In this document: one piece after another, positions 20,101 through 21,108 of the stretch | Numbering within the stretch: the stretch's first letter is position 1 | Layout: each line of letters starts with the position of its first letter | DNA from: Octopus vulgaris | Taxonomy: Eukaryota | Length of the DNA: 64,000 bases | Assembly: GCA_951406725.2 (NCBI GenBank) | Contig: OX597831.1 | Location: forward strand, 40,858,001 to 40,922,000 | Direction of reading: 5' to 3' | The notes under the pieces: model-generated | Databases searched by the model: none | Seen by the model: only the letters and a program-made list of their open reading frames with translations | What the model was told of the DNA's origin: nothing | Position numbers and translations under genes: made by a program

Positions 20101-20322
20101 TATCATGTTACATACCGTTGCAAGTATTTGAACCTTTATATACATTATCTACAATTGTTCTTCTATTTTTCAATATTTTTTTTAAACATAACATAAAACA
20201 CTTTACTCTTTTTTTTCTTTAAACGACTCTGTCTGCCGTCTCTCACCCAGACCGTTATTATTTACAGTCGTCGGTCAAGTCTATTCTCGCAGGGGTGTCG
20301 TGACAACATATATGTACTATCA

Positions 20323-20752
20323 TTAGCGGTATTTCGTCTGTCGGCGAGCTGGTAGAATCGTTAACACGCTGGACGGAATGCCTAGCGGTATTTCGTCTGC
20401 CGCTACGTTCTGAGTTCAAAATCCGCCAACGTCGACTGTGCCTTTCATCCTTTCGGGGTCGATTAAATAAGTACCAGTTACGCACTGGAGTCGATGTAAT
20501 CGACTTAATCCGTTTGTCTGTCCTTGTTTGTCCTCTCTGTGTTTAACCCCTTGTGGGTAGTAAAGAAATAGGTATTTCGTCTGTCGTTACGTTCTGAGTT
20601 CGAATTCCGCCGAGGTTGATTTTGCCTTTCATCCTCTCGGGGTCGATAAATAAAGTACCAGTTTCGCACTGGGTCGATGTAATCGACTTAATCTCTTTGT
20701 CTGTCCTTGTTTGTCCCCTCTATGTTTAGCCCCTTGTGGGCAATAAAGAAAT
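20323..20752 (+). mobile_element. Nested SINE-A composite with inner and outer TSDs
   Basis: Inner repeat GGTATTTCGTCTGTC at 20328-20342 and 20571-20585; outer repeat ATATATGTAC(T/C)ATCA at 20308-20322 and 20753-20767. Confidence 0.9.
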
Positions 20753-21108
20753 ATATATGTACCATCAATGGGTGTAGACCAGCGGAAAAGGTACAATGCC
20801 GAAGCATATTCCTGGTGGCATTTTTTCGACCCAATGCGTTGTGAGTTCAAATCACGCTTCCTATTATTCCAGCAAAGGTTTTGTGGGGAACCGGTTGTAA
20901 ATGGTGATAGGAATGAAACATCCTTAAGCAAGAGCCGAAATTTTTCATAATTTATCTGATCACGCAGAATGCCATTACATCTGCTGACAGGAGAGAAGAC
21001 AATTGAACTTGAAGGATTGCGTTTTCAAGGAAGGAATGAGGTATATAGATATTCATACGTTCACACACACACACACACACACACGCACATACACACGCAC
21101 ACACACAC

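Follow-up and report, generated by a model that had tools for sequence, protein, structure and literature searches.

In the 64-kb stretch of Octopus vulgaris DNA analysed in this study (the window; all positions refer to it), a SINE monomer lies inside another copy of its own family at 20308-20767, and this nested locus is likely one of several self-insertions and not the founder of the dimers nearby. Five tail-to-body junctions in the window, including that of the nested locus, fall at one and the same SINE position and lead into three kinds of second unit. The reading we favour, though tentatively, is recurrent self-insertion at a target built into the element, with the nested locus as one such event still in place.

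The nested locus and its SINE family

The SINE unit comprises 228 bp and consists of an A box, a B-box-like motif, a predicted head hairpin with the stub as its loop, a UCON3-like body, and a stem-loop tail. By blastn, 26 pieces were detected in the window, and 60,675-159,327 contigs per contig run matched the SINE. The SINEBase definition requires an interspersed element of <1 kb with at least 100 copies and at least 60% tRNA identity over 60 nt (PMC3531059). The octopus element is of this kind in length (<1 kb), interspersion, and copy number, and it shows TSDs and a LINE-type tail. Clear TSDs were found at the nested locus, 47935, 20097, 18517, 1291, and the four-unit composite, and a weak one at 59386. 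The A box was matched with at most one mismatch, while the strict B-box pattern was absent in 3/3 heads, in which a similar motif is visible. Rfam gave no matches and ARAGORN no genes for the SINE. Downstream of the head, the UCON3 core is present, with 38/47 positions identical to UCON3_CM (hand count, copy 1248(-)). A sister family, B, has head and body in common with family A and carries a different tail. The search for LINE fragments gave 24 matches and named no partner LINE.

Matches to the SINE body core were also found in metagenome contigs, at no fewer than 121 loci (an estimated ~7,900 stretches); among the matches listed, they belong to SINEs of other animals, have at most 61 bp in common with the octopus SINE, and only the ~45-bp UCON3 core occurs in all. 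An exact 24-mer plus ~45 bp of UCON3 core is common to these loci and the octopus SINE. The stub-head pattern was found 0 times in the metagenome contigs, where no locus of the octopus SINE family was found, and viral contigs gave 0 matches. Three GTDB matches of 20-23 bp were judged to be chance. On the protein level, antisense SINE peptides match Octopus bimaculoides records (3/10 proteins looked up bear that name). The antisense SINE frames P0003, P0006, and P0011 are open and lie inside O. bimaculoides gene models, as exonisation or annotation artefact, and one of these frames lies at the N-terminal end of an aminopeptidase-like model of 706 aa (label read from sequence). For an antisense peptide across the stub-head junction, one search gave 0 matches and another 13, none with the junction, both searches having little power.

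At the nested locus, the outer repeat is followed by TTAGC, GGTATTTCGTCTGTC, the monomer, GGTATTTCGTCTGTC again leading into SINE body and tail, and the second outer repeat (Table 1). The arrangement described in the initial annotation, a monomer nested between 15-bp repeats inside a host SINE with outer TSDs, was confirmed, with inner repeats identical at 15/15 and outer repeats at 14/15 positions. Of 3000 random flank pairs free of low complexity, 0.4% reached the score of the outer pair, compared with 2.3% of 3000 unfiltered pairs. The inner repeat is internal SINE sequence and is likely the TSD of the inner insertion. With 15 bp, it is as long as three other TSDs measured (range about 9-18). 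The junction most likely goes back to self-insertion, since the inner repeat has the usual TSD length of the family and starts exactly at the point where dimers enter their second unit. The stub allele T58 agrees with the host body and not with the inner monomer.

A 150-bp contig of the contig run X19 corresponds to 20224-20373 with 0 differences, joining flank, stub, and head in an independent data set. Because this contig spans the left junction, an assembly artefact as source of the junction was ruled out.

Table 1. Features of the nested locus and of related SINE copies, with positions in the window
Feature	Position	Strand	Remarks
Outer TSD, left copy	20308..20322	+	14/15 identical to 20753-20767
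Host-head stub TTAGC, 5 nt	20323..20327	+	monomer positions 40-44; loop of predicted head hairpin
Inner direct repeat GGTATTTCGTCTGTC, left copy	20328..20342	+	SINE positions 45-59; 15/15 identical to 20571-20585
Inner monomer	20343..20570	+	first-unit type (T193/T217), without 5-nt leader
Host body and tail	20571..20752	+	SINE positions 45-end; right inner-repeat copy 20571-20585; T4 run at 20620
Outer TSD, right copy	20753..20767	+	14/15 identical to 20308-20322
First T6 run 3′ of the locus	20821..20826	+	may terminate read-through RNA of Pol III
Dimer	59386..59798	+	leader intact; one extra 6-nt tail repeat at junction; 3′ tail short
Dimer	47935..48337	+	leader intact; TSD 18/18; moved as one unit
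Four-unit composite, ~800 bp	21..820	-	A monomer, A body, A monomer (from ~position 14-17), family-B body
Solo monomer, first-unit type	19869..20101	-	non-SINE target; 14/15 TSD begins GGTAT; junction text same as dimers

The inner monomer contains an A box (~20350-20361), a B-box-like motif (~20414-20424), a UCON3-like body, and a stem-loop tail. It had been called complete, yet it is without the AAGGC-type leader. Two Pol III promoters had also been assigned to a master composite created by the self-insertion; at the nested locus, the A box of the host copy is gone and a single one is left, so that there is one promoter. RNA cleavage in the loop of the head hairpin was considered as a cause of the host truncation at position 40-45.

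Junctions at a single SINE position

Besides the nested locus, tail-to-position-45 junctions occur at 59623/4, 48166/7, 589/588(-), and 189/188(-), and the tail-to-body junction reads tail|GGTATTTCG. Among these, the initial annotation had given the dimer at 59388, whereas the one at 47935-48337 and the two in the composite 820->21(-) are additions. Dimer 47935-48337, whose second unit is without positions 1-44, falls under the complex (dimeric) SINEs as defined in SINEBase, i.e. two complete or nearly complete units that move together (PMC3531059). The composite 820->21(-) is bounded by a 14/15 repeat at 821-835 and 6-20 (read by eye; a script found 14/20) and holds two junctions at this same position. 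The 18/18 TSD of the 47935 dimer and the 14/15 end repeat of the array show that such composites move as units. At junction 189/188(-), a first unit without T193/T217 is joined to a body whose sequence belongs to family B, starting 15 nt past the junction.

Further arrangements were seen in the window. The four-unit composite exceeds the usual SINE length limit and has a second type of junction, tail to head, at 406/405(-), located at a shared AGAA close to head position 14-17; the same join seems to be present in the antisense peptide P0010. In the solo SINE 1291-1020(-), the first 19 nt of the head stand in triplicate, in tandem (1291-1230). At 61000-61500 (+), two family-B copies lie head to tail, each behind a similar ~30-bp AT-rich sequence, which is either a long TSD or a local duplication. 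Family-B copies with (ATT)n tails lie in ATT microsatellites at 9900-10150, 30850-31060, and 32040-32280, near LINE fragments at 31148-32104(-) which we take to be R4/Dong-like; this suggests that the partner LINE of the copies with (ATT)n tails is another one. Three pieces have only the 3′ tail in common with family A (19300-19720(-) and 53584-53630(-)), two of them within a ~224-bp tandem unit, and they are possible remnants of the partner element.

With regard to the target, the solo monomer 20097(-) landed at CAAC|GGTAT, outside any SINE, and GGTAT opens 73 of 77,013 background sites (0.095%). The pattern AC|R..TAT was present at 5/9 other TSD boundaries versus 1-2% in the background and absent from 4/9; it was fitted post hoc to the same 9 sites, which inflates its p-value. 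When any shared 5-mer was considered over 8 TSDs, with correction for post hoc choice, p=0.08 was obtained. SINE position 44/45 offers GC|GGTAT, a one-base variant of AC|R..TAT.

Allele patterns and additional junctions bear on recurrence as well. In the four A-A dimers, the two states of allele 122/125 occur in mixed combinations (Y/X, Y/Y, Y/X, X/Y), each state accounting for 41-48% of the X19 depth; gene conversion and template switching can likewise produce such mosaics. Of the second units, that at 588(-) clusters with first units, outside the group formed by the other three second units, whose support of 92/91 lies below the threshold of the tool. In two X19 contigs (depth 15.9 and 29.8), the same stub is followed by a leader-bearing head placed 7-8 nt further along, and consequently other stub-head junctions exist; these contigs were found in one of three contig runs (X19; not listed for X20 or X11).

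Against insertion in place, the host must be cut 5 nt upstream of the target, and in the window there are no other 5′-truncated copies that start at the cut point of the host. Moreover, the nested locus has A205 and T91/T94 in common with the dimer 59388, so that independent formation needs chance or local conversion.

Under recurrent self-insertion, the endonuclease of a partner LINE favouring AC|R..TAT-like sites would nick GC|GGTAT at SINE position 44/45, and a SINE monomer would enter a 5′-truncated copy of the family, resulting in nested 15-bp repeats. The tail of the inserted copy contains no T4 run. With no T4+ terminator there, Pol III would presumably read on to the tail of the host, and the resulting monomer-plus-body RNA could be retrotransposed elsewhere as a dimer. 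This RNA would hold the target sequence right behind its first tail and could anneal to a nicked SINE, reinforcing use of the same base; a co-transcribed target sequence has been proposed to strengthen targeted integration in the description of a crocodilian SINE (PMC4494074). Self-insertion would then have recurred independently several times. A more far-reaching version, in which the octopus SINE homes into itself via read-through dimer RNA and the dimer is polyphyletic and self-reinforcing, with heads shuffled onto sister-family tails, appears rather unlikely.

Relation to the other dimers and alternative origins

In the initial annotation, the self-insertion was seen as the origin of the junction and, at the same time, of a master of the dimers. 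The first part stands as the likeliest source; the second is contradicted by leader and alleles. All of the other heads (8/8) keep the leader, among them those of the three other leader-bearing dimers (59386, 47935, 820). Daughters of an inner monomer without leader could not regain it, and the nested locus is therefore not their master. Likewise, transcripts initiated at the inner promoter would begin within the repeat (…TGTC-GGCGAG), but the normal leader stands at the front of the dimers 59386, 47935, and 820, which hence were not derived here. At columns 61, 122/125, and 155, the nested locus and the 59388 dimer disagree, and these are old alleles.

The variants said to link these two loci do occur in both, but have no diagnostic value. 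GTCGTTACG is widespread as an allele, with the alternative C at 20584 making up ~45% of the X19 depth, and one of the changes in GGTTGATT falls at a CpG. Shared by both are A205, T91, and T94, with A205 at no more than 9% of the X19 depth. Near the start of the second unit, a shared C-to-T change creates a T4 run (20620-20623, 59673-59676) at which Pol III could stop when transcribing such dimers. Distances between first units are star-like (0.092-0.115), with the nested locus at 0.106 from 59388 and 0.092 from 47936. Within the window, the second unit of the nested locus is nearest to the solo copy 1248(-) (0.066), followed by a fragment (0.069) and 59388 (0.071). The tree was built from 11 rows, leaving out the short fragment 18517, and had no starred branch. 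The second units of the nested locus and 59388 are sisters in the best tree with a non-significant support of 53/77, a first-unit clade of the two was not rejected (p-AU 0.30), and the tree neither shows nor rejects their pairing. Daughters sharing the 5′ end of the nested locus were not found, nor were daughters sharing inherited alleles of both of its units, in what is a small sample with a tree of low resolution.

For the depth data, three contig runs (X19, X20, X11) and one set of raw reads (X21) were used; of the runs with small shares, X11 alone was included. The summed contig depth, which is no copy number, was 271 (X19), 214 (X20), and 11.9 (X11) in the stub bin and 59,473, 58,234, and 24,674 in the head bin. 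In X21, 21 of 12.9 million records matched, none of them on flank or stub.

A serious alternative, though somewhat less likely than self-insertion, is that a dimer RNA of the ordinary type, sibling to the 59388 copy, was inserted in one step, with a 5′ jump of the reverse transcriptase onto positions 40-59 of another SINE RNA, so that the 20-nt stub mimics a TSD. Such jumps are known in the family, as the solo copy 1291-1020(-) with its threefold first 19 nt indicates, and dimers are common, with four others in 64 kb. A205, T91, and T94 in common with 59388 would be accounted for without coincidence, and a host cut at a lucky point would not be needed. In addition, no host-only or empty allele of the nested site was seen in the three contig runs, X19 having the same junction and X20 and X11 zero depth at 20307-20321. 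However, the jump requires that the extra piece happens to stop 15 nt beyond the dimer junction, for which we estimate ~4% (9/228 positions). The jump also needs T58, but the first units carry C58 (4/4 of those in dimers that have this position), and it leaves the 122/125 discordance with 59388 unexplained.

The nesting could also have happened elsewhere, in a full-length host, from which an outer-head trimer RNA (head, monomer, body) was copied to the present site and cut within the outer head. This is unlikely. Multi-unit composites do move as units, the two other stub-head contigs have a depth of 16 and 30 versus ~6 for single copy, which may mean amplified copies, and in X19 the stub bin with its depth of 271 exceeds the flank bin (6.5); of this stub depth, however, at least 113 belongs to ordinary monomer. 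In graph assembly with k=31, repeated exact 30-mers are expected to break contigs. The contig that bears the junction has a depth of 5.2 and no break, whereas other copies of its exact 30-mers would be expected to cause one; this argues against many exact copies. Furthermore, no go-back joint to 20343 was among the 15 joints listed, and the outer A box would be >100 bp from the nearest B box. Next to these 15, the data comprise 419 joints and 1,390 loose ends, among which rare trimers may lie. RNAs from inner and outer heads had both been assumed to be retrotransposed, but no amplified outer-head trimer family was seen in X19, with its unbroken contig at single-copy depth and a stub bin <0.5% of the head bin.

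Very improbable is a single origin, in which the junction of the nested locus founded the dimer family and the 59388 copy is its descendant: the first units of all four A-A dimers have T193/T217, three second units form one group, and three variants are common with 59388, but the leader, absent here and present in the three other leader-bearing dimers, largely refutes it, the old alleles are discordant, a family-B second unit occurs at the same junction, and the X19 depth of 1,248 at 20341 versus 66,681 at 20364 limits heads starting like the nested one to about 2% at most. Recurrent site-specific self-insertion, which the initial annotation had itself named as the alternative, fits better than a single master.

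Comparison with known systems and meaning

Octopus tRNA-derived SINEs named OK, OR1, and OR2 were reportedly described by Ohshima and Okada in 1994. The OK SINE is reportedly about 410 bp long, near the 411-bp dimer found here, which may belong to this family; the dimer itself may already be described. In a search of open-licence papers, with most subscription papers outside it, no description of the octopus dimer or its junction was found. According to a genome paper, SINEs make up 11.6% of the O. vulgaris genome (PMC13282606).

Nested SINEs moving as units are already known from pig PRE1 and Alu. For PRE1, nested and tandem SINEs are reported, and TSDs round tandem units suggest transposition as one piece, as for the octopus composites; no fixed insertion position is described in the PRE1 passages concerned, in contrast to the five octopus junctions at one position in the tRNA-like head (PMC9327148). 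In the human genome, 2,268 of 1,004,931 Alus are reported as nested, and Alu carries its own endonuclease target (TTAAAA, Alu junction), as the octopus SINE would. The Alu target is the A-rich linker, whereas that of the octopus SINE would be GC|GGTAT in the head, with a monomer-plus-body quasi-dimer as product (PMC3014933). Closest to recurrent self-insertion as proposed here is the account of SINEU-3 in crocodilians, where repeated insertion at a specific site, without a single master, gives apparent dimers with a TSD between their units; the target there is Mariner and the partner Tx1-Mar, whereas the octopus SINE would target itself (PMC4494074). By its body core, with the hand-counted match to UCON3_CM, the octopus SINE joins the UCON3-domain SINEs, for which the word octopus does not occur in the main text of the survey and molluscs are not among the phyla listed there (PMC7245038).

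Taken alone, the nested locus is a neat example of nested insertion, which as a kind is already known. Should recurrence hold genome-wide, it would provide a countable case of dimeric-SINE birth, with many events at one self-target versus one fusion, as well as a route for the exchange of tails between SINE families. Dimer copies could then neither be dated nor be used as one lineage in the annotation of octopus repeats.
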